DNA of 64,000 nucleotides from a virus, in IMG/VR virus record IMGVR_UViG_3300021255_002737, one strand, 5' to 3'. Shown piece by piece: positions 3,955-42,523 of the stretch (position 1 is the stretch's first letter; every line of letters begins with the position of its first letter). The notes beneath the pieces were generated by a model. It saw nothing but the letters and a program-made list of their open reading frames with translations. It had not been told where the DNA came from and ran no database searches. The position numbers and the translations under genes are program-made.

Positions 3955-3958
3955 TGTT

Positions 3959-4311: not shown

Positions 4312-4618
4312 TGGTAATCAACCTCTCCCCTTTGAACTTGCAGAGGATAGCGCTCTCTGGAAGGCGAACATGTTTCTCGGCGTCCACATAATAGATGTTA
4401 TAAACAGGACCATCAATCAAATGGGGAACACTGCTTTCCCAGAATACACCATCAATCCTAGCCAACAATGGTCCTCCTATTGTCTTCACGTAGACATATT
4501 CATTGATCTCATACTTATTCTTCTTGACTCGACATGATGAAATGGTATCCCAAACGTTGAGAATAATGAGAATCGCGGCTACCACTGTTATTAAATTAAT
4601 CATTCCGTGTACCTCCAT
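4304..4618 (-). CDS. Hypothetical membrane-anchored protein; paralog of 6624..6932
   Basis: N-terminal TM helix. C-terminus ...ILCKFKGE matches ...ILCKFNGK of the paralog. Confidence 0.65.
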   Translation of the reverse strand: MEVHGMINLITVVAAILIILNVWDTISSCRVKKNKYEINEYVYVKTIGGPLLARIDGVFWESSVPHLIDGPVYNIYYVDAEKHVRLPESAILCKFKGERLITNE

Positions 4619-7553: not shown

Positions 7554-7846
7554 TTTTTATCCTCCTGAATCCTTACAAACGCATCCCATGCATCCTGTAC
7601 GTTCTTAGTATCATCCGGTGTTACGGCATTCTTTGCGTTCTCAACAAGCTCCTCGATTAACTCAATATCTATGCAAGGGACAAGTTTTTGGAGCTGGTCT
7701 TCGAGTGACTCAGGATACACCGTGTACTCGCCATCGGCATATATTTCATTTTCAAGGTACTCTTTGCCATCAATGGTAATTGCCGTTTTGAATCCATATT
7801 GCCTTGCCCTGATATACGCTATCTCTCTTTTAATCTTTTCGAGCAT
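7550..7846 (-). CDS. Hypothetical protein; paralog of 4888..5394
   Basis: Start refined to MLEKIKRE, preceded by the same GGAGGT ribosome-binding site as the paralog. Confidence 0.7.
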   Translation of the reverse strand: MLEKIKREIAYIRARQYGFKTAITIDGKEYLENEIYADGEYTVYPESLEDQLQKLVPCIDIELIEELVENAKNAVTPDDTKNVQDAWDAFVRIQEDKK

Positions 7847-7954
7847 CTCAATACCTCCTGAACAGACTATAGCAGCCAATGTAAACACTACCACTACTGG
7901 GACTACATGGGATTGTCCACGTAATTTTATAGGGAACACTGAAATCACAATTAC

Positions 7955-8200
7955 TCATTTCTTGATCTCCTCTACTTTTGCAGTAGACAAGTGATCGTAC
8001 TCACGGTAGATAGCTTCTTTACTAAATGCATATTCATAGAAATGACATGGAACACCCCCTATGACAACCGACACGCGATATAATCTACGTGTTCTCTGTA
8101 GTCGCAGCAGTAGCCTCCATCGGTCATTCCTATGTGTTGCCAAGTCCATTCTAGGACAAGCACTACTATAGATATTGTATTTACGTTTCAGGTTATTCAT
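7955..8200 (-). CDS. Hypothetical protein; paralog of 5503..5772
   Basis: MNNLKRK...NDRWRLLLRLQRTRRLY. Confidence 0.65.
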   Translation of the reverse strand: MNNLKRKYNIYSSACPRMDLATHRNDRWRLLLRLQRTRRLYRVSVVIGGVPCHFYEYAFSKEAIYREYDHLSTAKVEEIKK

Positions 8201-8876
8201 TGTGATTCTCCATGTTTCTTATTTCCCTATCAAGATACCAACGAGCTTTCTTGAGGTCTTCGACTGGGTTATCCTTATGCTTCAAATGACACCTACTGAT
8301 ATACTTGATACAATTCCCAAGGTTGAATCCAAGGTGCTTGTCCTCGATGAAATCAATGACCTCAATCTTACCCTGATAGTAAGACGGATGGTTCACGGCA
8401 GAATCGTTCTCTTTCTTTGCAGACTCAGCAATGCCCTTCTTGATAGGCGTAGCTTGTGTGTCTATCTTTTGGCATGGTATAGAGAAATATAGTCTATGAA
8501 TCTCATCGTGAATAATATAGTTACCATCTACTATATCGTCTATCCTGTATACTTCGTTTTCAAAACGGATTTCATCGCCTATGTTGTACTTCATATTACT
8601 ACTCCCCTTATGCTTATCATATTTTCTTATAACAATGCCATTGCATTTCCATGCTAGCTCATTGATATCGGATTCGTTCTTGTTATACAGGTTACCATCA
8701 TTGGCATAGAGTACATAACACCTATCCAGCATCGTAGACTTCCAAACAAAGCCTAAGGTTGGTCTCTTTATGTATCTATCAACCACCTTGCATGTGAAGA
8801 CTCTACCTGTTGGCTTCCCATCAATCGTACTATTGATTCGTATCTCGTCACCAATATTGTATTTCCAGAAATCCAT
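8193..8876 (-). CDS. DUF3310-like protein (T7 gp1.7-related C-terminal domain) with two N-terminal SH3-like repeats
   Basis: C-terminus: VNHPSYYQGKIEVIDFIED...GNCIKYISRCHLKHK...DLKKARWYL. The YNIGDEIR motif occurs twice. Confidence 0.7.
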   Translation of the reverse strand: MDFWKYNIGDEIRINSTIDGKPTGRVFTCKVVDRYIKRPTLGFVWKSTMLDRCYVLYANDGNLYNKNESDINELAWKCNGIVIRKYDKHKGSSNMKYNIGDEIRFENEVYRIDDIVDGNYIIHDEIHRLYFSIPCQKIDTQATPIKKGIAESAKKENDSAVNHPSYYQGKIEVIDFIEDKHLGFNLGNCIKYISRCHLKHKDNPVEDLKKARWYLDREIRNMENHNE

Positions 8877-8980
8877 TAGTCATTACCCCTTTCAATTCGA
8901 TAGATGAAATACATGGAAAGTGCCGACAATACCGTAACACATCCAAAAACAAACATGAATGTAATTGATTCTTCTGTCAT
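8876..8980 (-). CDS. Small membrane protein (34 aa)
   Basis: Own translation: MTEESITFMFVFGCVTVLSALSMYFIYRIERGND. GAGGTG ribosome-binding site and TAATG overlap with the next gene. Confidence 0.45.
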   Translation of the reverse strand: MTEESITFMFVFGCVTVLSALSMYFIYRIERGND

Positions 8981-8990
8981 GAAATCACCT

Positions 8991-9194
8991 CTATATATGA
9001 TTGACTTTAACAAGAATATTCTCTAGCTTATTCATAGCGCGTTCATAAGAACATTCATTGTCTTTGTACGCCAAGCACTTATGGCACTCACGGTACTCAT
9101 AGCAACAGTTGAATTTCATCCCCGACAAGTAGCCATCTAGCTCTACTAACCCATTGTGTATATCTCTGAATTTATCTCGTAGGTCATTCATCAT
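8991..9194 (-). CDS. Hypothetical Cys-rich small protein
   Basis: 67-aa ORF. Confidence 0.55.
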   Translation of the reverse strand: MMNDLRDKFRDIHNGLVELDGYLSGMKFNCCYEYRECHKCLAYKDNECSYERAMNKLENILVKVNHI

Positions 9195-9400
9195 TTCACC
9201 TCCTGCAAGAACCGTGATATAACGTCGGTGTACTTGTTCTTTCCTCTACGCCAGATACAATACTTTTCTTTGTACGAACATTCAGATATTTTAATCTTAT
9301 GCTCACCGTATTGGAATACACCGACCTCTGGGGATGAGTCACTGTTCTTAAATGACTTCACATTCTCGATGCCATTAATAACGAACTTCAAGTAACGCAT
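9191..9400 (-). CDS. Hypothetical protein
   Basis: 69-aa ORF; first gene after the late-operon terminator. Confidence 0.55.
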   Translation of the reverse strand: MRYLKFVINGIENVKSFKNSDSSPEVGVFQYGEHKIKISECSYKEKYCIWRRGKNKYTDVISRFLQEVK

Positions 9401-9475
9401 CTCAAGATCACCTCCTTATGACAATACTCAGTATACATCGTATAACCATGATTGTCAATGGAAATTTTGTGTAGA

Positions 9476-9522
9476 CAACAAAAAAGCAGGGAGCCACCAG
9501 TATTTCTACTGATGAACTCCCT
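9476..9522 (-). terminator. Rho-independent terminator ending the structural/lysis operon
   Basis: Stem CAGGGAG (9486-9492) / CTCCCTG (9516-9522), followed on the minus strand by TTTTTTG. Confidence 0.7.
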
Positions 9523-9529
9523 GTATATA

Positions 9530-10093
9530 TTAGAAGAGAAGGACACCCAATGCGCCAACCCCTGCACCTGTAATGAATGCACCGATCTCGTGCTTGTGTC
9601 TCTTTTTCTTCTCGTCGGACTTAACCTTGGCAACCTCATTATCTTTTGCCTTGGTCAGTTCCTTGGTATTCTGGTCAACTGCCGTTTGTACTTCCTTTTG
9701 TACAATCGGTGTAACATCAAGAGTTACCTTAGATGTCTGGTCAACCTGTAGTTTCCCCTTGTCAAACTTCTGCGTCTCATTGTCTAATGTATCAAATTTT
9801 GTCTGCTGTCCATTGTAGTCCACGACAACCTGTGGCGGTTCCTTCGTGATCTGCACATCGGCATCCTGTGGCGTTTCCTTTTCGACATACTGAATCTGTG
9901 TCTTTGCTTCTGTCTCCACCGGAACCTTCACTTCTCGTACTTCGACCTTTGTCACAGGAACCTCTACGACATTCTTATTGAAATGAACACAAGCCTTCCA
10001 TCCACAGACAAAGGATACGACGATGACAAAAACAAACGTCACAATGAGCTTCCAGTGGTCAACAAGGAATCCCTTGACATTCTCCATAGTCAT
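9530..10093 (-). CDS. Membrane protein with N- and C-terminal TM helices (lysis-associated by position)
   Basis: 187-aa ORF whose start overlaps the amidase stop. Repetitive V/E/K-rich central region. Confidence 0.6.
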   Translation of the reverse strand: MTMENVKGFLVDHWKLIVTFVFVIVVSFVCGWKACVHFNKNVVEVPVTKVEVREVKVPVETEAKTQIQYVEKETPQDADVQITKEPPQVVVDYNGQQTKFDTLDNETQKFDKGKLQVDQTSKVTLDVTPIVQKEVQTAVDQNTKELTKAKDNEVAKVKSDEKKKRHKHEIGAFITGAGVGALGVLLF

Positions 10094-10680
10094 ACCTCCT
10101 GATTGCGATACCAGTTTGCTTTCCCCCTCAGTACATCTCCGCCACGGCTACCGTCAGTTGCATACGGATTGAACGAAGGGGATTCATTGGTTCCCAGGTA
10201 TTCCAAATCCCATCTTTGGCAATCTGCTTTCGGGCCATACGGATCATGCGGATAAATCCCATCTTCATTATCCGCGGCCTCACCGTGTGTTAACACGTGA
10301 TTCTTATCAATAGTCAACCAGAGTCCGTCTGCTACAGCGACAATGACCTGTGCCATCGCTTCAATCTGTGCATTCGTTGGTGGTTCACTGCCAAGATCGT
10401 CAGATGTAGCACCGACACAACATGCAAGTGTAATGCCAACCGCACCGCTATTCCGATGATATGTATGTGCAAGAACCTCGTCAAGGTCATGGTCTACATA
10501 GATAGAACCGTCAGCGTCAATGGCAATATGGTAGTCATTCAGGTAATACTGACCGTAATGCCCTGCTGTCCAGTGCAAGTAAATCTTCGGTTCTCTACCG
10601 TATGTCTGTGCCTGTCCCCAGATGGATTCACGGCAATTCTCTGCCATCTCTCTGATTTCCTCTACGGTAACTTGTCTCAT
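10090..10680 (-). CDS. N-acetylmuramoyl-L-alanine amidase (Amidase_2/PGRP-type endolysin)
   Basis: Motifs IYLHWTAGHYG, AHTYHRNSGAVGI and THGEAA. Sits immediately downstream of the holin genes. Confidence 0.75.
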   Translation of the reverse strand: MRQVTVEEIREMAENCRESIWGQAQTYGREPKIYLHWTAGHYGQYYLNDYHIAIDADGSIYVDHDLDEVLAHTYHRNSGAVGITLACCVGATSDDLGSEPPTNAQIEAMAQVIVAVADGLWLTIDKNHVLTHGEAADNEDGIYPHDPYGPKADCQRWDLEYLGTNESPSFNPYATDGSRGGDVLRGKANWYRNQEV

Positions 10681-10940
10681 TTACTATTACCTCCCCTGTA
10701 TGGCATGATACTCATTGGCGTATTCACGGTACTGTCGGTATTATACTTTGCCTGTGCAGCTCTAGCAATGCCATATACCGTAGCACCTGCCGTAGCAATC
10801 GTTGCAATGCCACTGATACCAACATTCAACTCAAAGTGATAGCCAAAGAGTCCATTAAGCCAAAAACACAATAAAATAGACAGACTCCACAATGACAATA
10901 GCGCCAATACCCATGCCCCTGCAAGGTATATCAACGTCAT
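10677..10940 (-). CDS. Holin (XhlB-like size, two TM helices); start uncertain
   Basis: From MTLIYLAGAWVLALLSLWSL it is 87 aa. The longer ORF reaching 11030 overlaps the upstream gene. Confidence 0.6.
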   Translation of the reverse strand: MTLIYLAGAWVLALLSLWSLSILLCFWLNGLFGYHFELNVGISGIATIATAGATVYGIARAAQAKYNTDSTVNTPMSIMPYRGGNSK

Positions 10941-10984
10941 GTGATTGGATTCTGCCCATCGCCCAAATTGCAAAACCTTGTCCT

Positions 10985-11230
10985 TCAACGGAATACCCCC
11001 CACAATGCAATGAGAGTAGCAATACCCCACACAAAGAGGTTCTTCGTGGTGAACATCTCGGTATCTGATTGTTCCAGATTACGGATACGCTCTTCGTGCT
11101 GCTCTAGTGTCTCCACGATCTCACTTGTTGCGCGTGACCGTTCACTGAGCATTACTTCGACTTTCGCTAGACGCTCAGAAATGTCACTGAGCTTCTCTAG
11201 CATCTTCACAACATCATTTGGTTCCATCAT
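10985..11230 (-). CDS. XhlA-like lysis protein (coiled coil plus C-terminal TM)
   Basis: 81 aa: N-terminal coiled coil then LFVWGIATLIALWGVF. Position matches PBSX xhlA-xhlB-xlyA. Confidence 0.65.
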   Translation of the reverse strand: MMEPNDVVKMLEKLSDISERLAKVEVMLSERSRATSEIVETLEQHEERIRNLEQSDTEMFTTKNLFVWGIATLIALWGVFR

Positions 11231-11382
11231 TTACTTTCCGTGTTTGGCGTTTCTTCTGTCTCCTCTTTTGTTTCCGGTACATATCCAATAACACACTCTG
11301 GATTCTGGCACGTACCATCCGCACGGAGCTTATGAGCGCAGTACGGACATCTCGGCGGTAATGTAAATTTCTTTCTAGCCAA
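11227..11382 (-). CDS. Possible zinc-ribbon protein, TTG start (51 aa)
   Basis: Own translation: (M)ARKKFTLPPRCPYCAHKLRADGTCQNPECVIGYVPETKEETEETPNTESK. GGAG lies 8 nt upstream of the TTG. The stop overlaps the next ATG. Confidence 0.4.
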   Translation of the reverse strand: MARKKFTLPPRCPYCAHKLRADGTCQNPECVIGYVPETKEETEETPNTESK

Positions 11383-11396
11383 TCAAATCACTCCAT

Positions 11397-11771
11397 TCAA
11401 TTCTCTCCATAGTATTCCTGCAAATCGGCATAGTCCTTCCGTACACTCGCAACGGCTTTATCGTCGTTTCTCAGCATAGCCACATTGAGGTTATCAATGC
11501 ATTCCTTCTGCATGGACTCATATTCCTCTTTCTCGATTTGCTCATCGGTCTTGAGCGGCTTTGGCGTGTACACACGGTATTGCCATGCACCATTCTTCCA
11601 TACCAGCTCATAGCCTTTCTTAGAGAGAGGAGGGACAACTGGTGTTGTGCGTGTCGGATAAATCCAATCACCGTTCTCTGCACGGTCTGTCGCATCGAGT
11701 ACAATGGCTTTCAGCAATACACCATCTGCATCGTACTGATAGACTACCTTGTTTTCTTTGATATTGAACAA
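11397..11771 (-). CDS. Hypothetical tail-fibre-associated protein (possible assembly chaperone, by position)
   Basis: 124-aa ORF with a TTG start after GGAGTG, directly downstream of the fibre genes. Confidence 0.55.
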   Translation of the reverse strand: MFNIKENKVVYQYDADGVLLKAIVLDATDRAENGDWIYPTRTTPVVPPLSKKGYELVWKNGAWQYRVYTPKPLKTDEQIEKEEYESMQKECIDNLNVAMLRNDDKAVASVRKDYADLQEYYGEN

Positions 11772-11900
11772 AATACATCACTCCTATTCAATTACTTCTC
11801 TCATTCGCATACGACATAGAAGTAGCCACGGTCATCTATTCATCAAAAGTAAAAAAATAACAGCTCGTCGATTGGGATAAACTGTAAAATATAGATTATG

Positions 11901-12686
11901 TTAAGGCACTACTTTGATAGCTAAATTACATTCTGTTTTGTTCGTTGAACATTCTATCAAGCATTTGCCAAGAGAAGAACTTTCGCTTAGTTCACCGGCC
12001 ACCACGTCAGCGCCCATGCCAATATCTCTGACATAAGAAAGCTGTACTGTTTCTGAAATCGTTTTAGTTCCTACCGTAACTGTAATAGAAACGTTGCAAT
12101 TGGAATAATGGTTTTTTACTCCAAGAAAGAGTTCTTTTCCATTAACTGTAACATAAGTTATTTCTGGCGTATCTGGAGACTGTGTTTTCACCTGGAAGCC
12201 ATAAAGGACAAACATAGGCATTTGACCGCTACCCCTCAAAGCCAGACTAACATCGGTAAAAGTAAGAGCAGGAATCAATGTAGCATCAGTGGCACTGATA
12301 ATCATCCTATTAGTTATTGTAACGTTATTTTTTATAAAACCTCCATTTGTAGTTTCTGAACCTTCTATTTCAGTTCCATTGATTGTAATTTTTCCTGTAT
12401 TATAGCCACTATCAGGGTTAAGTGAAATGTCTATGCTGTCTTGATATTCTGTTCTATAAACTGTATTGCCCGACGTATCTGCCGAAGAAGATAAACCTCT
12501 GCCGGATGACGTTATGGTCAATGTTTGATGTTCTTTCTGGATAACCGTGATGCTCTTCCGTGTATCAATATTTGTAATAGTATCAGCCATATCTGTTATT
12601 TTTATTTTGTCGGTAGAGCTGTTCTTAGCGCGTATAGCGTTAGCTATATCTGTCAGGTATTGTTCCGTTACTAATACTTTACTCAT
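11901..12686 (-). CDS. Tail fibre / receptor-binding protein candidate
   Basis: N-terminus VTEQYLTDIANAIRAKN is typical of Bacillota prophage fibre proteins. Distal position in the tail module. Confidence 0.6.
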   Translation of the reverse strand: MSKVLVTEQYLTDIANAIRAKNSSTDKIKITDMADTITNIDTRKSITVIQKEHQTLTITSSGRGLSSSADTSGNTVYRTEYQDSIDISLNPDSGYNTGKITINGTEIEGSETTNGGFIKNNVTITNRMIISATDATLIPALTFTDVSLALRGSGQMPMFVLYGFQVKTQSPDTPEITYVTVNGKELFLGVKNHYSNCNVSITVTVGTKTISETVQLSYVRDIGMGADVVAGELSESSSLGKCLIECSTNKTECNLAIKVVP

Positions 12687-12697
12687 ATCTTACCTCC

Positions 12698-14392
12698 TCA
12701 ATAACTCTTATCATCTGCATCGATGAGAGCGGCTAAGGCAGAATCTACATATTTCTTAACGCCATCGCTTGTCACTGGATTACTGGAATTAGCCGTAGGA
12801 GCTATATCAAAGGTTAGAGTATTTTGTTTCGCTGACAATTCTGCTTTAGTGGCATATGTGTTTACGATATTCGCACCATTACCGTCCTGCGTCGCTTTTG
12901 TTGCTGTGCCCTTCAAATCACCGGTAAGGGTAGTTGCAGTCACGCTGTTGAACCTGACGTCCTTACCAAGCTCTGCAAACAGACTCATATCTACGGAACC
13001 ACCAAGGTTATCCCAGCTCTCGCCGTTCCAGACAAGGTTATCTCCTGCATTTACACCATGTGCCTTATCAGCGTTCTTCACGTTATATGAATAACCTACT
13101 TGTGGATTTGTCGGCAAATCGGAGTAATTATCTACAGAACCTTGATAAGTAATTATCTTAGACAATGATTCTTTCGCTGCTTCTACATCGGCCAGAGATT
13201 TCTCTGCATTAGCCTTCGCTGTATCGACAATGGATTGAATTGCCTGTGCTGCTGCAAGTGCTTCTTGGGCTTTCTGCATGTATTCCTTTGCTGTATCCAT
13301 GTATGACTTAGCGTTAGATTCAGATACAGCTGCATTAGATTTCGATGCGCTTGCATTGGTCTCCGATGTCAACGCGCTAGATGCAGACTTAGCCGCATTG
13401 GTTTCAGAGGTTTTCGCCTTGTCCTCGGAAGCCTTTGCTGCAGTTGCTCTATCTTTAGAATATAATGCCCATGTTCTACTTGATTGAGTTTTACCAGTAG
13501 AGCTATTAGAGTCAGCTACATTATCAGGGGAAGTTATTGAAGCAGCCCATGCTTTTGATAAATTCATCGAATCGGAAGAAGATTTAGCTGATGTTGCCGA
13601 AGAAGTTGCAGAAGATGATGCATTCGTCTCAGATACTTTTGCATTGGCTTCACTTGTAGCGGCGTCCGATGCGCTCTTTGCACCTTTCGATGCGTTATCT
13701 GATGCTTCGTTCGCCTTATTTGTTGCTACGGTTAAATAGTCAGAAATAGACTGTTCCAGTTCCTTATTGGAGGCATTGAGTTTTTCTACTTTCTCGATAT
13801 AAGTCTTAATCTCTGCAATGGTATTATTGATTTCTGTACTCTTATTTGTAATATCATCATAATACGCTTTTGCATTTGTCTCAGAGCTTTTAGCGTTGGT
13901 CTCGCTTGTCTTGGCATTAGAAGCACTAGTAGATGCGCTATTGGCCCTATTAGTTGCCATAGTAACATTGTCAGCTGTTTGCTTTTGCAGTGCATCGATT
14001 TGTTTGAGATATTCCTGTATCTCACTAATAGTTGTACTAACGGCAATGGCCTTGTCGCTATATGTTTTTGCCTGTGATGCACTATCGGCAGCGGCCTGTG
14101 CTTGCTTCTTTGCTTCTTCTGCTTGAGCTTTGGCTGTTGCCTCACCAAAAGAAGAATCGTTCTTCATGGTGTTATACATATCAGTCACAGACTGTTTGAT
14201 GGCAATCAAATCGGAAGTATCTTTTACATCATCGATATTCTCTTTTAACCATCGTAAATCCTCAGCGATAATGTCATAGATACCGCTGTTATCTGATGTA
14301 GCAAAAGGGCTATTCTTGCCCACTACACCGTCTTTCGTTATTGTATCATTGGCATCACGCTGTTCTAAATATTGGAATCCCGCATTTAGCAT
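12698..14392 (-). CDS. Tail fibre protein with a long Ala/Ser-rich repetitive coiled coil
   Basis: 564 aa with many SETNAK/ASxSA repeats and a globular C-terminus. Confidence 0.7.
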   Translation of the reverse strand: MLNAGFQYLEQRDANDTITKDGVVGKNSPFATSDNSGIYDIIAEDLRWLKENIDDVKDTSDLIAIKQSVTDMYNTMKNDSSFGEATAKAQAEEAKKQAQAAADSASQAKTYSDKAIAVSTTISEIQEYLKQIDALQKQTADNVTMATNRANSASTSASNAKTSETNAKSSETNAKAYYDDITNKSTEINNTIAEIKTYIEKVEKLNASNKELEQSISDYLTVATNKANEASDNASKGAKSASDAATSEANAKVSETNASSSATSSATSAKSSSDSMNLSKAWAASITSPDNVADSNSSTGKTQSSRTWALYSKDRATAAKASEDKAKTSETNAAKSASSALTSETNASASKSNAAVSESNAKSYMDTAKEYMQKAQEALAAAQAIQSIVDTAKANAEKSLADVEAAKESLSKIITYQGSVDNYSDLPTNPQVGYSYNVKNADKAHGVNAGDNLVWNGESWDNLGGSVDMSLFAELGKDVRFNSVTATTLTGDLKGTATKATQDGNGANIVNTYATKAELSAKQNTLTFDIAPTANSSNPVTSDGVKKYVDSALAALIDADDKSY

Positions 14393-14413
14393 TTATATCA
14401 CATCCTTATTTTA

Positions 14414-17400
14414 TTAACTATTACTGATTGTGTATGGGCTGTTATGCTGGTCTGTACACAGGAAAAATGCATTACCAGAAGCAAGAGGTACGTCTGCTGT
14501 GGTATTGAAAGAATAAGAAGATAGGGATATTCTCGAACGAATAGAAGCACTGCTGGCAACATGATGGCCGTAACTATCTTTAGGATTAAGATGTGTCTCT
14601 ACTTGTAATTTAATCGTGCCACTTTGGTTAATCTTGACTGTTGTCGTGTACGAAGTGGACTGGTCACCACCCATGCTTGAAAGGTTAGCTAATGTTTGTT
14701 GTTTAATAACATTATTATCCTTGAATACAGATAATGACACTGTTAAATTACTGCCCCTTCTAAGGACATTATTCTCATTGTCGGTTGTTGTGCTTCCATA
14801 AGCTACAACATCTACTTTTATTACTATAGACGTTTCTGTCGCATCTTCTGGTACTTCTATTGTTTTACTCGATGTCTTTGTTCCATAATAATTCTCGCTA
14901 TCGCGAGAAGAACTCCAACCGGTAGTCAGATTGCCTTCCCGTAGCTCTACATTGCCATCTACGTTTTCTATATATGCATTTACAGGAACACTACTGCCAG
15001 ACCCTGCCTTAAGGACCGTGCGGCAAACCGCTTGGAACCCATTGTTTGTCACATTCTGCGCTCTGCAATCTAAATACAAATTTGTGCTATTATACCCCGG
15101 GATAGCTGTCTGTAGGCTAATTGGTGTAATAATGACATTCGGCGCATTTTTCCACGGTTTTGTAAATTTAATCCATTGTCCATCTTTTACCGTTCCCATG
15201 ACCATTGCGCCGACCATTGCAAAAGTATTGCCATTACCGTCGTGAAATTCCATACCATTTGAGCCGTGTACAACATACGAACCATCATTGCCACGTACAG
15301 TAAGGCCATTGGTATCAAGTGTTGCGCCGCCGCCTTTAATCCCCTGATTAGCAGTGAGTTCCATTGTACTAGCACTCAATTTATCAGCAGTAATAGCTCC
15401 TGCGGCTATCATGCCACGTACAACGACATTATTGTCAAAATGAGTATCGCCAGTGATATGTATCTTTTTGCCGTCGATGAGAATAGATTCTTTGCTAATA
15501 TTGATTTGATTGATAACATCATTTTTAGACACTCTTAGTGCAATATTGTTATCCAATTGAGCGATAGCACTGTAATTTTTCTTTGCTTTGGTCGAATCGG
15601 AGAGGTTTGTGACAACCGATGTAATACTATTGGCATTCTGCGTGATGCGCGACGACAGCCCAGAAATCTGATTGTTAGCATCGGTGTGATAGTTTTGCAC
15701 AGTAGAACTCAATGAATTTGCATTTTGTTTGATTTGGGAAATCTGAGTATCTGTAGCACTTTTATTGCTCTGTACTGTAGATGTCAATCCATTGATATCA
15801 ACCTTGAGCTGTGAAATAGACTTATACGCGCTCTTAGACGGGTCAGTGTTGTTAAGATTATTCTCGATAGTTACCTTTACGTTGTCAGCCTTTTGCGATA
15901 CTTGGGAAATGGCACTGTCTGAGTTTGTCTTGTTAGTCTGAACAGTAGACTTTATTTCGTTAGCGGTTTGAGATAACTGTGATATAGACTTGTATGCACT
16001 CTTAGATGGGTCGGTGTTGTTAAGGTTCAGTACAACGGATTTAATAGCACTGTCATTTTGCGAAATTAATGATGCGTGCTCTTGATTAACACCATCCTGT
16101 GTAGACTTATTGGTGGCAATTATTGATTCTAACTTTCCGTCTTTTTTGTTTAGCTCTTGAATTGACTTATATCCATTCGCGTCCGATGGAGACAGGTTTA
16201 ACTTGTTGTTGATATTTGCTATATCATTGTTTAAGTCAGATTTAGCCACGGATATATCATTGTTGATATCGGATATATCATTGTTGATATCGGCTATGTC
16301 ATTGTCTACTCCATCGAGCCTCGGAATAGCCTGTTGTGCATCTGATACGGCATCTTGGATTTCCTTATCGACTTTCTTGAGCGATATTGCTTCATCTTTA
16401 AGCCACTCAGGATTCATCTCTGGTTTTATCGTATAAGCATATTTTACCGATGTGTATCCTTCGCCCATCATGTCAACGTAAGAAGCCCAGAAATTGTAAA
16501 TATCAGGTTCGCCGTTGAATGTATACGATGCATTATTCAAATCGAACGACTTAGAAATGTTATGTCCTTCTACATAGAGACGCATGGATTTGACACGAGC
16601 AGGGAACGGAGCAACCAGAACATTAACACCGCGTAGTGCTTCGGTGAAGTGAATGTAGCTCGGTGCATCTGGCTTTGGATAATTGTATGTTACTTTCGCA
16701 GGATAGCTATATTTCTTTAGCGTATTCACACTATATACATAGACTGTTCCTTTGCGTTCCATCAGATTCACATCGATAGAAGTGGACTGTGTTTTACCAA
16801 GCAATCCTACAGGAGAGCCAACGTTTGTATCCGTGCGAACTTCATAGTACATTACATCAGAATCAGGGACATCCGACCACTTAAACGTAAAAGCGCTCGT
16901 GAAATCGTAGGTGAGATTGTATGGCTGCGAAGGTACAGTCTCTTTTGCCGTCACCTTAATAGTCACTGTTGGTGCAGATGCTTCCGATGAAATCAGACCG
17001 TCAGTTGTACGGCTTTGCACACGGAACTCATAGACATCGCCAACCTTTGCATTAGGGATAACGATTTTTGTAGGACTATCTCCTGCATATATCCATTCTC
17101 TCGATAAGCCAACAGAGTCAACAACTTCGCCTTGTTTGAATGTCCCAATTTGAGCAGCAGTCATATGATTGGTCTTATAGTAAACCAACCCTGTCTCTAC
17201 ATCGTATCTCTGGGGAAGCTCATAAGAACAGATAACGTCATAGCCCGTTGTACCATCTTCGTACCGTCTATACTGCGTATATGCTTTGAGGTTCACTGGA
17301 TTCGACGGAGTACGCTTCTCGACGGTCTGTGTCGTATCTGTGTAGTTATACCAATGTATGCCACCGCCTAACGCATCGCCATAGATAGTATCGTTGTACT

Positions 17401-21940: not shown

Positions 21941-24900
21941 TTAACGGAAACCGTGTCGTTTTTGGTTATGGAGAATCGATTGGAACGCTCTTGGGTTCCT
22001 CTGGATCGCATTCATAACATCATCACTGGATGCGTGTGTATTCAGTACAACGACATTACCAGAGCCATCGGAATTACCCATGTTCTTAATGGTATCCGTC
22101 TGCTCCTGCATGAGCTGTTCCATGCGTGCATTCGGATTCGTCACACGGACTCCTTCGGCTCTCTTTGCTACACGTGGGGAAATCTGTGGAACATATGGTG
22201 TTGGATTCAACGCACCACCATCGGCAAATGCACCGTAATTCATGGCATCCAGATTGTCCTTACCAATGCGGCTCGTTGCTTCCGCTGTCATGACATATTC
22301 GCCATTAGAAAGAAAAACGAACCTGTCCTTGTCCGCTAGATATGCGAGGATACTATCAGATTTACCAGTGCCAGCACCACGAATCATACCGCCGTTAGCA
22401 TACGCTCTGCTCAGTAATCCGCCCATAGCATGACCACCCAGACTAATGGATGGCGTAGAACCTGCCATGAGCATTGCTTCGGTGAGTGCTTGCATCTGCA
22501 ATGTCTGTGCCTGAGTTGTCACTGTATTCGTCTGGACAGCCGTTGTATTCATTGTGTCTTTCAGGTTAGAGGTCTGTGTCAACGTATTGGAAACATTGGT
22601 GAGTGCCGTTGCTTTCTGTGTGACATTACTGAGTTGACTAGTTGCTTGTACAGACTTGTTCACGGAGGATGCGAGTTCTCCACCACTGGATTTCATGGGG
22701 AAGTAATTGCCATTCAGTACACCGTTGCTCATATCAAGATAACGATTACCCGTTGCAACCTGTGTCCATCTCCTTGGTGTAGCCGTGAATCTCGACGCAT
22801 TATTTGCAAGAAGTCCAACACCTGCATTGACAGCCGCGTTCTTCCCTGCATTACGATTACTGATTGCATCGTCAATCGTTGTTCTTGCATTGAACAGCCA
22901 ACGGTTGACCGTCATTCTCATGATCTGTTGCAATGCAATCTTAGCAACGTCATCCCAGAGCTTTTTCCATGACTCTTTGAAGGAACTACCTTGCTTGATA
23001 ATATCGAAGAACATATCATCAATATCACTCTCAATGGTGCTCCAGAGATTCTTTGTGACTTCATCGTCCTTCTCAGCAATCTCACGGATTTTCGCTTCTG
23101 TTTCTTCGACCTCTTTTTGTATTTTCTGGAAGTTCTCACTGCCATGCTTTGAAAGCTGGTCAATGTTTTCCTTGAGGTCTTTGGCCTTTGCCTTGAGTTC
23201 CGCAATCTTATCCTTGGCCTCATCCGTGTTGTCGCCCTTGTATTGAGCAAGTCCCTTCTCTACGAGTTCACCCTTCTCGTTGTGCTTACCATTCTGGATA
23301 TCATCAAGCTGTTCGTAGTATTCCTCAAGCTGTTCTTGGTCACGCCTACGAATATCCATGAGACTTTCCCTTTGTCTCTTTAGTCTCTCGTTGTAAATAT
23401 CAATTTGAGACTGATAGAGTTCATGGGTATCCATATACTTTTCCTCGTCAGTTTTATTGGAAGTTGTACGGTTATACCATTCCTCAAGGCGTTTCAGACG
23501 GAAGTCCTCATCCTGTTCAGGAGTCATATAGCCATTGCGAATCTTTTCATTTACACGTAACTCAGCGAGTTTGCTATCGGCGTTGCTTAACTGCTCACGA
23601 ACCTTAAAGAGGTTATCAACGAGTTTCTTGAACTCATTATCCTTCTTACTGGTTAAATCAGCGAGCTTTCTTAATTCGTCCTGTGGCATGTCATAAATGC
23701 TTTTGCCGTCGAGTTTATTTTTGATTTCTACGTGCTGATTAAGGTATTCGTCAATATCGTCCGTAAGATTATCATAGGTCTCAACCCATCCCTTACGGTT
23801 TTTCTCTACGGCTTCATAGTATGACTTTTCGCTTGCATCGTTTGCACGAAGTAATTCATAGGTATCGCCATGAATCTTCATCTGATACTCGATGTTTTTC
23901 TTCTTCGCTTCGTAGAGTTTTTGCTGACGGTCTTGGTCATAGATAGTTTCTGCAATTTGATCTCTTGTGAAATCTGCAAGGGTACTCTTGCGACCATCCC
24001 AGAAAGACGGTTTACGAATACTATTAGCATTGCCCTGCATCGGGCCATTGTGATAGCGATTCCATGCTTCGGTGCCTGTACCATCACCAACAAGAGGGCC
24101 TGATGCAGAGTCAACAGTTCTTCCGTCGTTACCCTGACCAAAGGACACATCGTAGTGAGTGCCACTTTCAACCGCGGCAGAAACACCATAATCTCCAAGA
24201 ATATCTTTAAGTACTGCCCCATTATTGTCTATGGACAAGTCTGCTTTATACCCCGCATAGTGTCCCCACGGAGAATTTGAGTGTCCCGAGCCACCAGTCA
24301 ACGATGTAATGGCTAATTTTTGACCAGTTGCGGCATAATAACGGTTTGCAATGATATTGATAAGCCTACGGACGTATGGCTGTAGATTCTCAATGTTATC
24401 CCAGCTGCCACTCATTGTGATATATCGAGAGTCAAGGCCATACATAGACTTATCATCAACATCGTAGCCGCCACTCTGGATACCATTGACATCACCAGAA
24501 GCTCCTTGTCCTTGACCAATGAGTCCTTCTGACATGATACCTCTCATGCTTGCGGCATAGTCATTAGGATTAGCCGTGAAATATCCATTGGCATACATGC
24601 CATTAGCAAGTTCCTCTGGACTAGACGGCTCAGAATCAAAGTCGTTGTCAATTGTATTGGCAAGTTTTGTTGTAAAGTTATCGTCACTACCTTCGTCTAC
24701 ATCTTCGCCACCATCCATACCAGCAAAGTTGTGATTCCGTTTTGCAGCATCGCGCTTGCCACGAGCTGACTCATGCATCATGATGAGCCAATACCAGAGA
24801 GGATTCTTGACCTTCCGTGCTTTACCAGCGGCATCTACGGCGAGTTCCCAAAGATGTGCTTCGTCTGAATCATTGCCAATGTATGCTTGACCATCGGCAG

Positions 24901-26848
24901 AAACAGAGCCACTATAGCCACCAAGGTCATAGAGTCCACCTGCTTGCTCATTTGGATCACTGAATCTTTGGTCATTCTTATTGTAATCATAGTGATTACG
25001 GAGGAACAATGCTTTATCGTTTAACCATGTTTTCCAGTCTTGATCCGTAATGCCAGGCGTAAGGTGTCCCAGTGCTTCTGGCACAGAGAGTCCCTGGGCA
25101 AGATATGGTGCCATCTTCTCATAAAACAAACGTCCAGATTCCCATGTATTGCGTCCACCAGTGCCAAATGGGTCAGACACACCATCGAACTCAAGAGTAT
25201 TAATACCAGTCAATTTCGTGACAATAGCAGACAATGTAGCGATGTCAAGGCCATTCCTTGTATCAAAGTTGGCCTCAAACTTTTTAGACAACTCTGCAAA
25301 CATCTGTGATGTCGTGTCGCCATACTGCCAATCCTCTTTTGGGTCTTTCTTTGTGCGTTCACCGCCACTACTACCGCGCTTTTGTCTTTCACTAGGTGTA
25401 CGATTATACACGTCGCCACCAGCACCTTCACCGGAACCCCATTTTTGCAAGAAGTCATTAGGGTCATTAACAACAGGGGCACTTGTATTAAGTCCACTGG
25501 CAAGATTCGATGCTTCCTGTGTGGCTTTATCAGCCGCCGCTATGATTTTATCGTATCCTGCATGGTATGCTTCCATATACCTGTCGCCCTTAACATCCTC
25601 TTGTGCATTTTCTGCATTTTTGCGCATTTCTGCAACTCTTTGTGTTAAATTACGATACTGTACAACCTCTGCGTTTGACATATGGTAGTCTGGGTCATTG
25701 TATCTGTCATTCATCTCGTCAATTTTGCTTTGCAGTTCATCTGCTTGCTTCGTATAGCTATTAGCCTGTGCTTGGTCGAACTGTTCTTTCATTTGATAAA
25801 AGGCAGTATATGCATTTGCCCAATCGCCGAGTGCCTTAATTCTATCACTAATACCATTGCAGAACTCATATGTCTCTTGTTTCCAGGTATTGAGGTTATC
25901 CTGTGCGTTCTGCCAGTTATTCAGAGCCTCTTGCTGTTTTGCCGAAATAAATTCAGCCAATGCCCTTTTCTTGTCATCCGTTGCTTTCTTATAGTTGTCC
26001 CGCACCTTCTTTGTAGAATCATCTGTCCAGTTATCCGCTTGCATCTGTTGTACAGCAGACCATCCGACAACCTGTGCCATTTGGTTCTCTGTTTCGATAC
26101 GATCCTCAAGGAGTTTCTTCTTCTTCTCGTCGCTGACCGTGGAACTCTCAATCTCTGCCGTGAGCTTCTGGTGAGCAGTAAAGAGTGCATCAAGAAACTC
26201 CTCCTGCTGTGTGTACATTTCAATCTCTTGGCGCTTCACTGCCACGCTATCCTGGATTGCTTCGGTCTGTTTCTGTACGGCATTTGTACTCTCATTGATG
26301 TTGCTTGTGAGTGCTTCAAGACCAAGGTCAAGTGCAAGAGAGACACCGAATGTTGCGGTGGCTTTCAGTAAACTAATACTGTTCTTTAGTGAAATGATAG
26401 CGGCTTTCAGTCCCCCTGCTGCTGTTGTTGCAGCAGCAAAGGCTGTTGACATGTTACTGATTGTCGCTGTTGCACCACTTGCTGTAATCATGTTTAACGA
26501 TGTACGAACCATTCTCATAGCTCTGTTTACAGCGTACATGATAGCAGCTAATTTCACCATGCTACCAAGGAAACTGTATGTGGATGTACTGACCGTAGAC
26601 AGGTAATGTGCCAGATTATCTAATTCCGTAACGCATTCCTTGAGCCATTCGGTAAGGCCACTGTTGCCACCTTGTGCAACCATACCAGTCAAGTCGGCCT
26701 TGAGTTTATTAATGCGACGAGACAGGGAATCCATCTGGTTTTTCACCTGGTTATCCGTGAATCCCATGGAATTGACAGCAAGGCCCCAGTTCTTGATGAT
26801 TTCCTGATAGTTACTGAACATTGCTGCTGCTTTTGCCCATTGAAACTT
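21941..26848 (-). CDS. Tail tape measure protein, exon 2 (contains two muralytic domains)
   Basis: Continues the TP901-type core (KFQWAKAAAMFSNYQ...NSMGFTDNQVKNQMDSL). Hydrophobic segment and long coiled coils. Glucosaminidase-like HESARG...NHNFAGM and LAS/M15-like SGHSNSPWGHYAGYKADL...THYD. Confidence 0.8.
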   Translation of the reverse strand, partial: KFQWAKAAAMFSNYQEIIKNWGLAVNSMGFTDNQVKNQMDSLSRRINKLKADLTGMVAQGGNSGLTEWLKECVTELDNLAHYLSTVSTSTYSFLGSMVKLAAIMYAVNRAMRMVRTSLNMITASGATATISNMSTAFAAATTAAGGLKAAIISLKNSISLLKATATFGVSLALDLGLEALTSNINESTNAVQKQTEAIQDSVAVKRQEIEMYTQQEEFLDALFTAHQKLTAEIESSTVSDEKKKKLLEDRIETENQMAQVVGWSAVQQMQADNWTDDSTKKVRDNYKKATDDKKRALAEFISAKQQEALNNWQNAQDNLNTWKQETYEFCNGISDRIKALGDWANAYTAFYQMKEQFDQAQANSYTKQADELQSKIDEMNDRYNDPDYHMSNAEVVQYRNLTQRVAEMRKNAENAQEDVKGDRYMEAYHAGYDKIIAAADKATQEASNLASGLNTSAPVVNDPNDFLQKWGSGEGAGGDVYNRTPSERQKRGSSGGERTKKDPKEDWQYGDTTSQMFAELSKKFEANFDTRNGLDIATLSAIVTKLTGINTLEFDGVSDPFGTGGRNTWESGRLFYEKMAPYLAQGLSVPEALGHLTPGITDQDWKTWLNDKALFLRNHYDYNKNDQRFSDPNEQAGGLYDLGGYSGSVSADGQAYIGNDSDEAHLWELAVDAAGKARKVKNPLWYWLIMMHESARGKRDAAKRNHNFAGMDGGEDVDEGSDDNFTTKLANTIDNDFDSEPSSPEELANGMYANGYFTANPNDYAASMRGIMSEGLIGQGQGASGDVNGIQSGGYDVDDKSMYGLDSRYITMSGSWDNIENLQPYVRRLINIIANRYYAATGQKLAITSLTGGSGHSNSPWGHYAGYKADLSIDNNGAVLKDILGDYGVSAAVESGTHYDVSFGQGNDGRTVDSASGPLVGDGTGTEAWNRYHNGPMQGNANSIRKPSFWDGRKSTLADFTRDQIAETIYDQDRQQKLYEAKKKNIEYQMKIHGDTYELLRANDASEKSYYEAVEKNRKGWVETYDNLTDDIDEYLNQHVEIKNKLDGKSIYDMPQDELRKLADLTSKKDNEFKKLVDNLFKVREQLSNADSKLAELRVNEKIRNGYMTPEQDEDFRLKRLEEWYNRTTSNKTDEEKYMDTHELYQSQIDIYNERLKRQRESLMDIRRRDQEQLEEYYEQLDDIQNGKHNEKGELVEKGLAQYKGDNTDEAKDKIAELKAKAKDLKENIDQLSKHGSENFQKIQKEVEETEAKIREIAEKDDEVTKNLWSTIESDIDDMFFDIIKQGSSFKESWKKLWDDVAKIALQQIMRMTVNRWLFNARTTIDDAISNRNAGKNAAVNAGVGLLANNASRFTATPRRWTQVATGNRYLDMSNGVLNGNYFPMKSSGGELASSVNKSVQATSQLSNVTQKATALTNVSNTLTQTSNLKDTMNTTAVQTNTVTTQAQTLQMQALTEAMLMAGSTPSISLGGHAMGGLLSRAYANGGMIRGAGTGKSDSILAYLADKDRFVFLSNGEYVMTAEATSRIGKDNLDAMNYGAFADGGALNPTPYVPQISPRVAKRAEGVRVTNPNARMEQLMQEQTDTIKNMGNSDGSGNVVVLNTHASSDDVMNAIQRNPRAFQSILHNQKRHGFR

Positions 26849-27110
26849 CAATTTGTTACTCATAAAAAATAAGCCATAGCTTATCATTACGGGTACGGTC
26901 ATTTCTGCCGTACTCTCACGTTTTATTTCATGACTATATCGTGAGTTCGGACTATACATTCATCCCTCGACTTTACGTTAGGGAGGCTATTTGTAGTCTC
27001 TACGGTTCCCTATATAGGTTTTACCACGGTCTTGTCCTGTCATTAGGAGTTTAACCGTTATTAAAGCATACTAATAATATATTTCTATATTATGCGGCAA
27101 GTTTAGGTCT
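26849..27110 (-). ncRNA. Candidate group I self-splicing intron (262 nt, no ORF) in the tape measure gene
   Basis: R-like GUAGAGACUACAAAU (26990-27003) and S-like AUGUAUAGUCCGAAC (26945-26959) form P7 GACUA/UAGUC. P1 is GCGGU|AG with UUGCCGC, with a U.G pair at the splice site. P10 is AAACUU with the exon-2 start AAGUUU. Terminal G. P2, P3, P8, P9 and two further 3' hairpins can be drawn. The junction is in frame. Confidence 0.7.
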
Positions 27111-29222
27111 ACCGCCACTCATTTGAATCCAGAGGTCTTTCAGGTTTTTGTTTGTCCCTTGGGCAGCAACAGCAACATCCATTAAGACAGCCTGTGCAGA
27201 GCGAACTTTGGTGACACCATTGACAACCTCTGTGGTTGCAATGCCGAGCTTATTGAGTTCCTTTACAGCCTTATCGCTATTGAACGATGCAAGCATTGTC
27301 TTGAGCATATTACCAATTTCCGAACCACTCAATGCCGTTGCACGAGTACCTTGAGCAATGAGTGCATTAAGGAACTCGAAGGAGATTCCTGCCTGTTTAG
27401 CGACCGAACCAGAGCGTTCTACGCCAGCTGCAAGGTCTTGAGCAGAGACACCTGCATTGTGAGATAACTTGGTATATACATCGACAATCTTATTGGAATA
27501 TGCCAATGCTTCTGCACTGTTCTTTGCAACAAGTCCGTACTGGAACATAGCTGCTTCTACGGCCTTTGTGGACTCTGCCATAGAGAAGTTATCGGCAACA
27601 GCCAGTTTTGCTGATTGAGAAACCAATGTATTGACCGTTGCTTGGTCTTTGTACATACGTCCCCAAAGTCTTGCAGATTCCATAACATCCTTTACAGACT
27701 CACCGTATGCGCTTGCCGTGTTAATGAGTGCTCGTTGCTCCTCTTGGTATTTCTCAATGGCTTCAGACGATTTACCTTCAAGCTGCGGCATGACCGTTGC
27801 CAAGTTATGCATTTCCTCATCGAGTTTAACAAGAGAATTGAATGTTTCCGTTGGAACTGCAAAAGCCGCACCAAGCAATGAACCTGCGGTAATCCAATAC
27901 AGATGACTACGCAATTTCTGTTCAAACGACGCAAACTTTTTTGAAGGTTCAGTGTTGTTCACGTCTTTCTGGAAAGCCTCATACTCTTTCCGTACAGCTG
28001 CAAGGCTCGCTTTAACGTTATCCAGTGCGGCCTTATTTGCAGCAGTAGGATCGCTTTTCCAGAGGGCATAGACTCTCTGTTGAACATCTTCAAGTCTACG
28101 AAGTTCCCTTGTATACGATTGGATACCCTCTGCCCATTTACCAGTTGGATCAACTGGCTGTACAGAAGGTGTAGTTGGTGCAGGATTCTTTGTTGTGTTC
28201 ATACTTCTCTGATAGGCTTCTTGTTCTGCCCTTACCTTTGCAATGGTAGTAGCAAGTTTATCAAGGTTTTGCCTTGCTTCCTGTGAGCCATCGTGTCTCC
28301 AGACGATATACATCTGCTCCTGCAATGCCATCAACCGTGATAATTCCTGGGAATACGTCCTGAGTCCAGTTGACCATGCTTCAAGGTTCTTCTGCATAAC
28401 AGCCTTGTTTTGTGCTTCGGAATTGTTGAATGAGCTGAATGGAGACGTGAATGTCTTTGCTCCGCCGATTTTCTGATATTCAGCAAGGAGTTGATTGAAC
28501 TGTTTCATTGATAACTCAAAGTCTGCTCTCTTGACCTGCTGTCCACGTTCCATAGCAAGAGTCTGTCTATCAATGATCCTTTCGATTTGTGTCTCAAGTT
28601 CTGCACGACGTTTTAACTCATCAATAGCAGCCTGAGTACTCCACTTATATGTCGAGTAGTTCTCACTATTGTAAACATTGTCACGAGCAATACCATATTC
28701 TCTGAGCTTTGTAATGACCTCATCCAACGCATTTCTGCGGTTATACCATGTAGATTCAGGAATGAGCTTATTGTTACTCTGGGCAATCGAAAGAGTGCGT
28801 GTTAACTGCTCGTACTTCTTGAGTAATTTATCAATAGCTTCATTGTCTTTAATAGCAGCTTCCTGCATCTTCGTCATGTCCTGAACAAGGTTATTGAAAG
28901 AGCTTGCCTTGATATTTTTCAGGGTATCTTCCAGAGTCTTTTCAAGGGAACGTAAAGACTGCTCTGTCTGCTCTACACCATTAACTTTAATGGATGCGCC
29001 CTTGTTCAGCAACTCAATGCCACGCTTAACCTCACGCAAATCCTCACTGATCGTGTGAAGGTTTGATTTGAAGTTATCATTAACACCAATATTTACATTG
29101 GAATTATTCAGTTTATCAACGAAATTCTTTGCACTTTCGAGGGATTTCTTGACACCCTCAATTTTATCCGTGCCATTGGCAATGATATTGATTTCATATA
29201 CCAACTGTTGTTTGTCTGCCAT
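27111..29222 (-). CDS. Tail tape measure protein, exon 1
   Basis: Start refined to MADKQQLVYE (GGAGGG ribosome-binding site). Coiled coils followed by the TP901-family core (SAYGESVKDVMESARLW...AQDLAAGVERSGSVAKQAGISFEF...). As a stand-alone ORF it would end RPKLAA* inside the proposed intron. Confidence 0.8.
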
Positions 29223-29294
29223 TTTATCCCTCCAATTTGACATAAAAAAATAAGGGATACCATGTTTTACCACGATACCCCTTTGTTATATCAG

Positions 29295-40724: not shown

Positions 40725-40799
40725 TGGAGCTACCAGCAGGAATTGCACCCGCGTCCATGGTGTACAAGGCCATTGTTCTGCTTATTGAACTATGGTAGC
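40725..40799 (-). tRNA. tRNA-Thr (anticodon UGU), slightly non-canonical
   Basis: Manual cloverleaf: acceptor GCTACCA/TGGTAGC, D arm GTTC-AATAAGCA-GAAC, anticodon loop CTTGTAC, T arm GCGGG-TGCAATT-CCTGC, encoded CCA. Deviations: a 31-39 C/A mismatch and G at position 55. Confidence 0.6.
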
Positions 40800-41747: not shown

Positions 41748-42523
41748 ATAACACCATACCTTTCAAAGAAACATTCCTTATTCTCGACAACAATCACAAG
41801 ACGTTAACCTTGCTTTTGCTATAAAATAACGGCGAGCGACAGGGAAGGAATGGTAAAACCTGTCAATGGGGAGCTACCCCGACTCGCCGGTATAAACAAA
41901 TAAACATAAAACTACACTGGAAAATAAGGTTTCCCTTTATGTCCTCATGTTCTGTGTTATTGTGTTACGAGCAATACAAGTCTGAGCAACGACTAGCAAC
42001 TTTCGCGCTTCTTGCACTAGGAGCTAACTCCCCTATGACTCGACAGGACTATGACCTGCATCTTTCATTCATCATTCAGAAATGATATGCTTTTTCTAAC
42101 CAATATTATGCAGATTGAACTACTCTACCTATCTACTTCCGTTATAGCTGCGGTTAAACAGCGTCACTGCAATACCTGTTTGATTGGGTTTATACCTATG
42201 GTTAGACCATGTGAACCCAGACACATGATTTCATAGGCGACCGTATTGGTGCTTGCACAGGCCGGAAGGGACGGACACTACACTCGACATGATTCACACA
42301 TATCCCAACAAGATAAGCTCTTTGAACTCTCATCGGCATAATCGCTTACGTCAACTAATGAATGGTACAGGCTATCGTCTATATCATCCATTTCTCTTAA
42401 CAGGGATATTCTCAGCGGACTGACAATCCTCTGCACTGAGTTATCTTCCAGTACAGTTTTATGTCTATTTATAATGGTGGGGATGGTTTAATTGGACACA
42501 TCCCCATAAAAATAAAATATTAC
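41748..42523. ncRNA. Candidate large structured non-coding RNA region (776 nt, no ORF) next to the tRNA genes
   Basis: Dense local hairpins, including a three-way junction at 41830-41889 (CGGCGAG/CTCGCCG enclosing ACAGG/CCTGT and GGGG/CCCC). Confidence 0.35.
41790..41818 (-). promoter_or_regulatory. Shared operator/promoter box upstream of an antirepressor gene, copy 1
   Basis: CAATCACAAGACGTTAACCTTGCTTTTGC; 28 of 29 positions identical to 43139..43167. Confidence 0.5.

Follow-up and report, generated by a model that had tools for sequence, protein, structure and literature searches.

Why does the tape measure gene of this phage appear as two genes? The window, by which we mean the whole 64,000-nucleotide stretch of viral DNA that was analyzed (IMG/VR record IMGVR_UViG_3300021255_002737), encodes a normal siphovirus structural module around the break, with terminase, portal, and tail proteins as neighbors. 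Two open reading frames (ORFs) were called on the minus strand: one of 727 amino acids (27090 to 29273) with the C-terminal end ...DLWIQMSGGRPKLAA-stop, that is, ...SGGRPKLAA-stop, and one of 1672 amino acids (21941 to 26959) that includes ...MSNKLKFQWAKAAAMF.... Both were present as an earlier sequence-only reading had listed them. That reading had also placed the break inside the conserved region, which is accurate in that conservation runs across the break (...GGKFQW...) but not in the sense of a disrupted domain, as the match to PF10145 (PhageMin_Tail) in exon 1 had by then reached profile position 190 of 201 (E = 8e-20, residues 519 to 710, profile positions 3 to 190). Finally, it had proposed that the interval between the two halves is an ORF-less group I intron and that ligation of the flanks restores one gene in frame. 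Consistent with that proposal, removal of the 262 nucleotides from 26849 to 27110 fused both ORFs in frame as ...WIQMSGG followed by KFQWAKAAAMFSNYQ..., with a predicted ligated RNA in which ...AGU GGC GGU is joined to AAG UUU CAA... and a DNA junction in which ...AGUGGCGGU is joined to AAGUUUCAAUGG.... The fused tape measure is 2356 amino acids long from the GTG at 29273 and, as the sequence-only reading had given it, 2339 amino acids long from the first ATG (29222).

The predicted junction was found uninterrupted in relatives. Sixteen homologues, namely, L007, 13 viral contigs (L276 to L288), Alicyclobacillus phage KKP_3916, and YomI of phage Goe12, were gapless at the junction, where ...GG is followed directly by KFQW... 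or the aligned equivalent. A single frame crosses the junction in L007 (SASGGKFQWAKASAMF), and the 13 viral contigs read ...GGKFQW(S/A)K... without a break, L281 (QMSGGKFQWSKMAAMFSDYKEIIKNWG) being the closest of them to the window. For KKP_3916 and the SPbeta-like Goe12 YomI, continuity over the junction was checked residue by residue. Moreover, in L277 and L282 the junction DNA, in which TCTGGCGGT is followed directly by AAATTCCA, is the same as the sequence that flanks the intron in L012 and L110.

A related insertion was found at exactly the same site in 11 other contigs, either by protein search with the spliced junction as the query (L001, L002, L003, and L006) or by pattern scans (L008 to L012, L017, and L110), and the U.G pair and the terminal G were kept in all of them. 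The homologous ORFs recovered by the protein search, close and distant ones alike, end at the break with a short tail of the same kind, as ...SGGRPKLAA-stop, ...SGGKRKLAA-stop, ...SGGERKLAA-stop, or ...AGGRHICPPLQ-stop, and a stop at or near the position of the UAA just inside the intron was present in 12 of 12 same-site copies. At least four other contigs carry near-identical copies of the intron. As exact empty and filled alleles both exist, presence or absence of the insertion is a polymorphism at one phosphodiester bond. The ligation predicted from the sequence is correct. We conclude that the boundaries of the insertion are exact to the nucleotide.

Similarity outside this set of contigs was low. 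Megablast and blastn searches detected no DNA similarity to GenBank phages for either the region or the intron, and the nearest isolates (KKP_3916, the SPbeta-like Bacillus phages with YomI, and Basilisk) were at most 30% identical, with the window tape measure and its Bacillus phage homologues sharing approximately 26 to 30% identity. None of the 17 junction-region homologues in the protein collection was a junction-spanning protein. A P1-pattern scan of genome contigs gave at least 120 matches, the pattern being too loose; the covariance model indicated no real copy in 80 of them (L154 to L233), and a looser core-motif regular expression found no copy in 120 (L154 to L273). With respect to the empty sites themselves, the DNA of L007 at 10175 to 10210 reads AGTGGAGGA followed by AAATTCCAATGG, such that an A rather than the U required by P1 precedes the would-be insertion point, and other empty sites retain GGT or GGC/GGG there. 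Synonymous differences of this kind might alter whether a site can be invaded.

Read on the minus strand, the interval contains the helices of a group I intron (Table 1). The helices occur in the order P3-P4-P5-P5'-P4'-P6-P6'-P7-P3'-P8-P8'-P7', in which P3 and P7 form the characteristic group I pseudoknot, and A-rich J4/5 and J5/4 segments lie between P4 and P5. The strands of P7 are separated by 39 nucleotides that hold P3' and one hairpin, P8. Most of the elements proposed by the sequence-only reading were recovered where it had put them: P1 with its U.G pair, the GAAA-capped P2, the P7 strands within R-like and S-like boxes (aligned to the R and S positions of the Rfam group I model), P8, P9 with two further hairpins, the terminal G, and a P10 that pairs at six of six positions in the window. 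Its P3 (GGUUA/UAGCC) was wrong, as the GGUU is part of P4 (5' strand, ACGGU); comparison across the copies indicates GCU(U)/(U)AGC instead. The P4-P6 region, which that reading had left unfolded, could be assigned in full. Minimum-free-energy folding of the 262 nucleotides alone recovered P2, P4 to P6a, P7, P8, P9, P9.1, and P9.2, and the fold was more stable than those of shuffled sequences (z = -2.8).

Table 1. Features of the interrupted tape measure gene and of the intron, in window coordinates
Feature	Position	Strand	Description
Exon 1, tape measure gene	27111..29273	-	GTG at 29273, first ATG at 29222; contains most of PF10145
Exon 2, tape measure gene	21941..26848	-	Begins AAG UUU CAA UGG (KFQW); stop codon included
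Group I intron (predicted self-splicing), 262 nt, ORF-less	26849..27110	-	Boundaries set by empty-site alleles
In-frame UAA	27090..27092	-	Directly 3' of P1; terminates read-through from exon 1; part of the 5' strand of P2
P1	27094..27115	-	Exon GCGGU 27115-27111 / guide GCCGC 27098-27094; U27111.G27098 at the 5' splice site
P10, 5' strand AAACUU	27099..27104	-	Pairs with exon 2 AAGUUU 26848-26843
P2 hairpin	27074..27093	-	AUAAUAUA-GAAA-UAUAUUAU; 8 bp
P3, 5' strand GCUU	27064..27067	-	Partner UAGC 26989-26986; U.U as the fourth pair of the window copy
P4 and P5	27026..27058	-	P4 ACGGU 27058-27054 / ACCGU 27030-27026; P5 UCCU 27048-27045 / AGGA 27038-27035 inside it
P6 (GG/CC) and P6a (CCU-AUAU-AGG)	27004..27025	-	P6 of 2 bp only; the P6a loop is the location of the ORF in relatives
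P7, 5' strand GACUA	26994..26998	-	In the R-like box GUAGAGACUACAAAU; partner UAGUC 26954-26950 in the S-like box AAUGUAUAGUCC
P8 hairpin UCCCU...AGGGA	26963..26984	-	Sole hairpin between P3' and P7'
P9 hairpin CUCACG...CGUGAG	26915..26945	-	100% paired, with two-sided changes in 4 of 6 pairs
P9.1 hairpin GUACGG-CAGAAAUGA-CCGUAC	26893..26913	-	100% paired, with two-sided changes in 5 of 6 pairs
P9.2 hairpin AUAAGC-UAUG-GCUUAU	26869..26884	-	Length differs between copies
Terminal G (omega G)	26849	-	3' splice site, after conserved (A)GUAACAA; invariant in 11 of 11 copies

Substitutions among the same-site copies maintain this structure. A MAFFT alignment (A1) of the 11 distinct same-site copies was made with 8 nucleotides of exon on either side, and the ORF inserts in the P6a loops of five copies were swapped for a placeholder GAAA loop. 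Standard pairs occupied 93.7% of the pair cells in A1, compared to 33 to 44% when the partners were slid by one to three columns, and 32 of the 65 pairs changed on both sides, compared to 11.8 ± 2.2 in shuffled alignments. None of 500 shuffles matched the observed values on any of the five measures. P2 had all eight pairs changed on both sides and 100% pairing; in L003, for example, P2 is formed by AUAACGUA and UACGUUAU, with changes that compensate each other relative to the window. All four pairs of P5 covaried. The last pair of P7 was A-U in seven copies and G-C in four, and its first pair, which in group I introns is part of the guanosine-binding site, was G-C in 11 of 11.

Pairs that join the intron to its exons covaried as well. 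P1 was paired in 100% of cells, with the U.G pair in 11 of 11 copies, and in L002 an exon C-to-G change is matched by a G-to-C change in the guide, converting C-G to G-C. P10 was paired in 90% of cells, and in L008 and L002 a G-to-A change in exon 2 is matched by C to U, converting C-G to U-A. P4 showed no variation among the same-site copies, as the pattern used to find them selected on P4; across the wider family, a single P4 pair is altered, from A-U to U-A. P3, at 76.7% paired, is an underestimate, as MAFFT aligns P3 and P2 wrongly in the rows that diverge most (L001x and L002x), and a table built from anchor positions gave P3 pairings of GCU/AGC, GUU/AAC, UAGG/CCUA, and GUGA/UCAC across copies. 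Finally, P9.1 combined a freely covarying stem with a nine-nucleotide loop that was identical in 11 of 11 same-site copies, and the invariance suggests that the loop may make a tertiary contact.

A covariance model, R1, was built from A1 and found exactly one copy of the intron in the window and no further ones. An R1-guided alignment of 24 sequences from other sites and contigs had 93.0% of cells paired, compared to 31 to 47% with slid partners, and 46 of 53 pairs compensated, counts that lean towards the structure because the alignment was fitted to R1. The general Rfam model performed differently. No group I match was reported in the entire window at the gathering threshold. With relaxed filters, RF00028 (Intron_gpI) matched a 551-nucleotide segment (26700 to 27250) at 19.0 bits (E = 0.016; gathering score, 50). 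The search that the sequence-only reading had suggested thus gave a full-length alignment (model positions 1 to 253 on 26927 to 27120, minus strand), with R, S, P1 to P6, P8, and P9 at the positions of the mapped structure, but a score below the threshold. At the relaxed threshold, RF00028 detected nothing in the sibling copies, whether near-identical or more distant, and the low score therefore reflects the reach of the model more than the element itself. The default Rfam group I model is blind to a whole family of phage introns, and gene callers break the tape measure genes that carry them into many pieces.

We conclude that the segment from 26849 to 27110 on the minus strand is, with high probability, a self-splicing group I intron that lacks an endonuclease gene and sits in a tape measure gene, its catalysis being predicted from sequence and comparison. 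The splicing steps proposed here are those of the established group I mechanism. The tape measure gene would be transcribed as one pre-mRNA, and the intron would fold into the P1-to-P9.2 architecture around the P3/P7 pseudoknot. An external guanosine bound in P7 would then attack the phosphate after U27111, which would be held in the U.G wobble of P1. With exon 2 aligned by P10, the 3'-OH of exon 1 would attack after the terminal G at 26849, releasing ligated exons that encode a single tape measure of approximately 2340 amino acids. Ribosomes that enter unspliced RNA would be halted by the UAA just inside the intron.

One alternative is that the tape measure is truly split, such that a 727-amino-acid protein ending in RPKLAA and a protein of about 1672 amino acids, begun at the ATG at 26959 or at MSNKL, are separated by an intergenic spacer. 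Both ORFs are open as called, and the ATG at 26959 is in frame with exon 2 and has a Shine-Dalgarno-like GAGGG four bases upstream, in the window only. That GAGGG, however, belongs to the 3' strand of P8 and is conserved for pairing, and the start is not conserved: the open frame that leads out of the intron to exon 2 ranges from 3 to 111 nucleotides, is only 3 to 12 nucleotides long in L011, L012, and L110, and contains no start codon in L001, L002, and L006. A second half translated on its own would require a start that is conserved, and as none is found among the same-site copies, the split gene is disfavored. Moreover, a spacer would produce neither 32 compensated pairs nor a presence/absence polymorphism at a single bond, and the uninterrupted homologues are contiguous at the junction. 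We consider a genuinely split gene highly improbable.

We give equally little credence to a dead group I relic that no longer splices, within a tape measure pseudogene of a defective prophage. The absence of an endonuclease gene, the U.U mismatch in P3, the RF00028 score below threshold, and the fact that splicing is a prediction would all fit such a relic, but the core helices, the U.G pair, the terminal G, and the P7 G-C pair are intact, each exon is long and has no other interruption, and near-identical copies exist in other contigs. Moreover, close relatives differ by compensating paired substitutions, as in P2 of L003, which indicates ongoing selection on the fold and, with the intact core, makes a relic unlikely. 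Least probable of all, at the edge of what we would consider, is an insertion of another type, whether a group II intron, an intein, a remnant of a MITE or insertion sequence, or a translational bypass element. Nothing specific speaks for any of these beyond the fact of an insertion within a gene. In-frame stops argue against an intein, the length of 262 nucleotides, the R and S boxes, and the P3/P7 pseudoknot fit group I rather than group II, and terminal inverted repeats are unnecessary as an explanation. Boundaries that follow the rules of P1 and P10, with pairs that covary with the exons, again point to a group I intron.

If the element is such an intron, its relatives suggest how it might have reached the tape measure gene. 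Five same-site copies (L001, L002, L006, L017, and L110) carry a GIY-YIG homing-endonuclease ORF in the loop of P6a, matched at E = 3.3e-11 in L110 and 2.4e-09 in L017. The L110 ORF is intact at 328 amino acids. In L017 (6273 to 7588), the frame is broken into 229 and 76 amino acids, and the ribozyme is almost identical to that of the window outside P6a; the L017 endonuclease gene looks like one in decay. No endonuclease ORF, nor any ORF of that size, was found within 26849 to 27110, as the sequence-only reading had said. Because siblings at the same site encode GIY-YIG proteins, the window copy can be regarded as the ORF-less state of a homing intron. The mobile family would home into the conserved ...GGKFQW... 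target by means of the GIY-YIG endonucleases encoded in sibling P6a loops, and the window copy, which either lost its endonuclease gene or never had one, would be inherited passively or mobilized in trans.

A well-known precedent is the td intron of phage T4, in which the GIY-YIG ORF of I-TevI resides in a peripheral loop of a phage group I intron. The family described here resembles the td type in having a GIY-YIG ORF in a loop off the core (P6a, in the siblings), in the coexistence of ORF-less and ORF-bearing versions, and in an in-frame stop soon after the 5' splice site. It differs in that the window copy is ORF-less, in that the host gene is structural rather than one of nucleotide metabolism, and in the absence of IA-type P7.1/P7.2. 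Phage group I introns with homing endonucleases of the GIY-YIG type have been reviewed (PMC3984707). The occurrence of ORF-less and GIY-YIG-bearing versions at one site makes the family useful for studying the cycle of intron and endonuclease gain and loss.

The family extends to other sites. Relatives have tape measure breaks after ...ATALSG and after ...SG.EIG, both of which are uninterrupted in the window, and R1 matches were found at the former in L004 and L005 and at the latter in L006 and L007. Two to five family matches lie within a few kilobases of each other, several of them in one tape measure gene, in six contigs (L006 at 9965 to 12333, L007 at 7802 to 9983, L012 at 2592 to 4492, L018 at 817 to 3288, L022, and L026), with three R1 matches in L012 and four in L018. 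In two related introns, in L011 (minus strand, P6a loop) and L004 (10467 to 10739), a small hydrophobic ORF takes the place of the endonuclease gene. These ORFs encode 76 amino acids, in the one that follows AAAGGAGGG, and 90 amino acids, and neither had a Pfam match. L004 also carries, at 10891 to 15234, a tape measure homologue with five in-frame stops, all TAG, and L005 has the same sequence. One TAG lies two codons before the GGKFQW site (...LLAI-stop-GGKFQWSK), and the alignment to the window protein continues through all of the stops. TAG may be reassigned in the phage represented by L004 and L005.

The core is shared more widely still. The P3-P5 core motif, AAUAACGGUUAA...CAAGACCGU, is common to more than 119 metagenomic loci, some of which, with R1 scores of 60 to 90 bits, interrupt tRNA genes within tRNA clusters. 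In L081 (875 to 1215) and L065 (700 to 1013), and also in L061, an acceptor/D-arm half lies upstream of the intron and an anticodon-stem/T-arm half lies downstream. The split tRNAs of L081 and L065 were recognized by direct reading of the halves, as the boundaries rebuilt by ARAGORN were unreliable.

Introns in the anticodon loops of bacterial tRNAs, for example, in Azoarcus tRNA-Ile and cyanobacterial tRNA-Leu, belong to subgroup IC3, and the ribozyme in the window looks closer to this type, a likeness of architecture and R1 scores rather than a formal subgroup classification. Shared features include a length of approximately 190 to 260 nucleotides, the lack of P5abc and of P7.1/P7.2, and siblings that interrupt tRNA genes with the same P3-P5 core. 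The window intron differs in residing in a protein-coding phage gene and in its extra 3' hairpins, P9.1 and P9.2. Subgroup IA, on the other hand, is defined by P7.1/P7.2. The window intron has neither, as no hairpin other than P8 lies between P3' and P7', and the IA1/IA2 hallmark P7.1/P7.2 (or P7.1a) is thus absent from the P7-P3'-P8 region; P7.1/P7.2 are among the features by which group I introns are classified (PMC3984707).

Introns in tape measure genes have been described before. Tourasse and Kolsto reported in 2008 the group I introns TMP-IVS1, TMP-IVS2, and TMP-IVS3a/b at three tape measure sites in prophages of the Bacillus cereus group (PMC2504315). Several of these lack a complete endonuclease gene, their P1 and P10 are fitted to each site, and they were classed as IA1/IA2; the same study found intron-less alleles of the gene, as well as introns in the genes for terminase and the tail tube (PMC2504315). 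The window intron and its relatives share with the TMP-IVS introns a tape measure host gene, several sites, ORF-less copies, site-fitted P1 and P10, and intron-less alleles. They differ from the reported IA1/IA2 introns in that the window element is without P7.1/P7.2, in that its core is common to introns of tRNA genes, and in that no DNA similarity to a GenBank phage was found. In Cluster J mycobacteriophages, group I introns in genes for capsid and tail proteins are likewise reported to be spliced during late expression (Pope et al. 2013; PMC3706429). There, too, the host genes are virion structural genes and only some members of the cluster carry introns; the differences are another host phylum and a minor tail gene in place of the tape measure. 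The sequence-only reading had regarded a tape measure gene as an unusual location, and this argument does not survive comparison with these reports, as splicing of introns in genes for capsid and tail is documented (PMC3706429) and tape measure introns, some of them ORF-less, were published in 2008 (PMC2504315).

Because tape measure introns have been known since 2008, the locus opens no new question. It adds a well-documented case of presence/absence polymorphism, and its value is mainly in annotation and in the detection gap that it exposes in the standard model. The two ORFs should be annotated as one tape measure gene of approximately 2340 amino acids. As tail length scales with the tape measure protein, an annotation as two genes would mislead structural and taxonomic inference. 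A broader interpretation, which we offer tentatively and judge possible rather than probable, is that these introns constitute an uncurated compact group I clade beyond the Rfam model, with a tRNA-intron core that is not IA1/IA2. Taken as one joint proposal, such a clade would have radiated in the giant tape measure genes of metagenomic SPbeta-like phages, where it would occupy three or more sites in each gene family and reach several copies at some loci, with small hydrophobic ORFs in place of endonuclease genes in the P6a of some members.

Two other RNA genes lie on the same strand as the intron, each approximately 14 kb from it. A full-length ROOL RNA (RF03087) was found at 41907 to 42464 on the minus strand, with a score of 214.8 bits compared to a gathering threshold of 99.1, and a tRNA gene was found at 40728 to 40799 on the minus strand, with a score of 57.2 bits.
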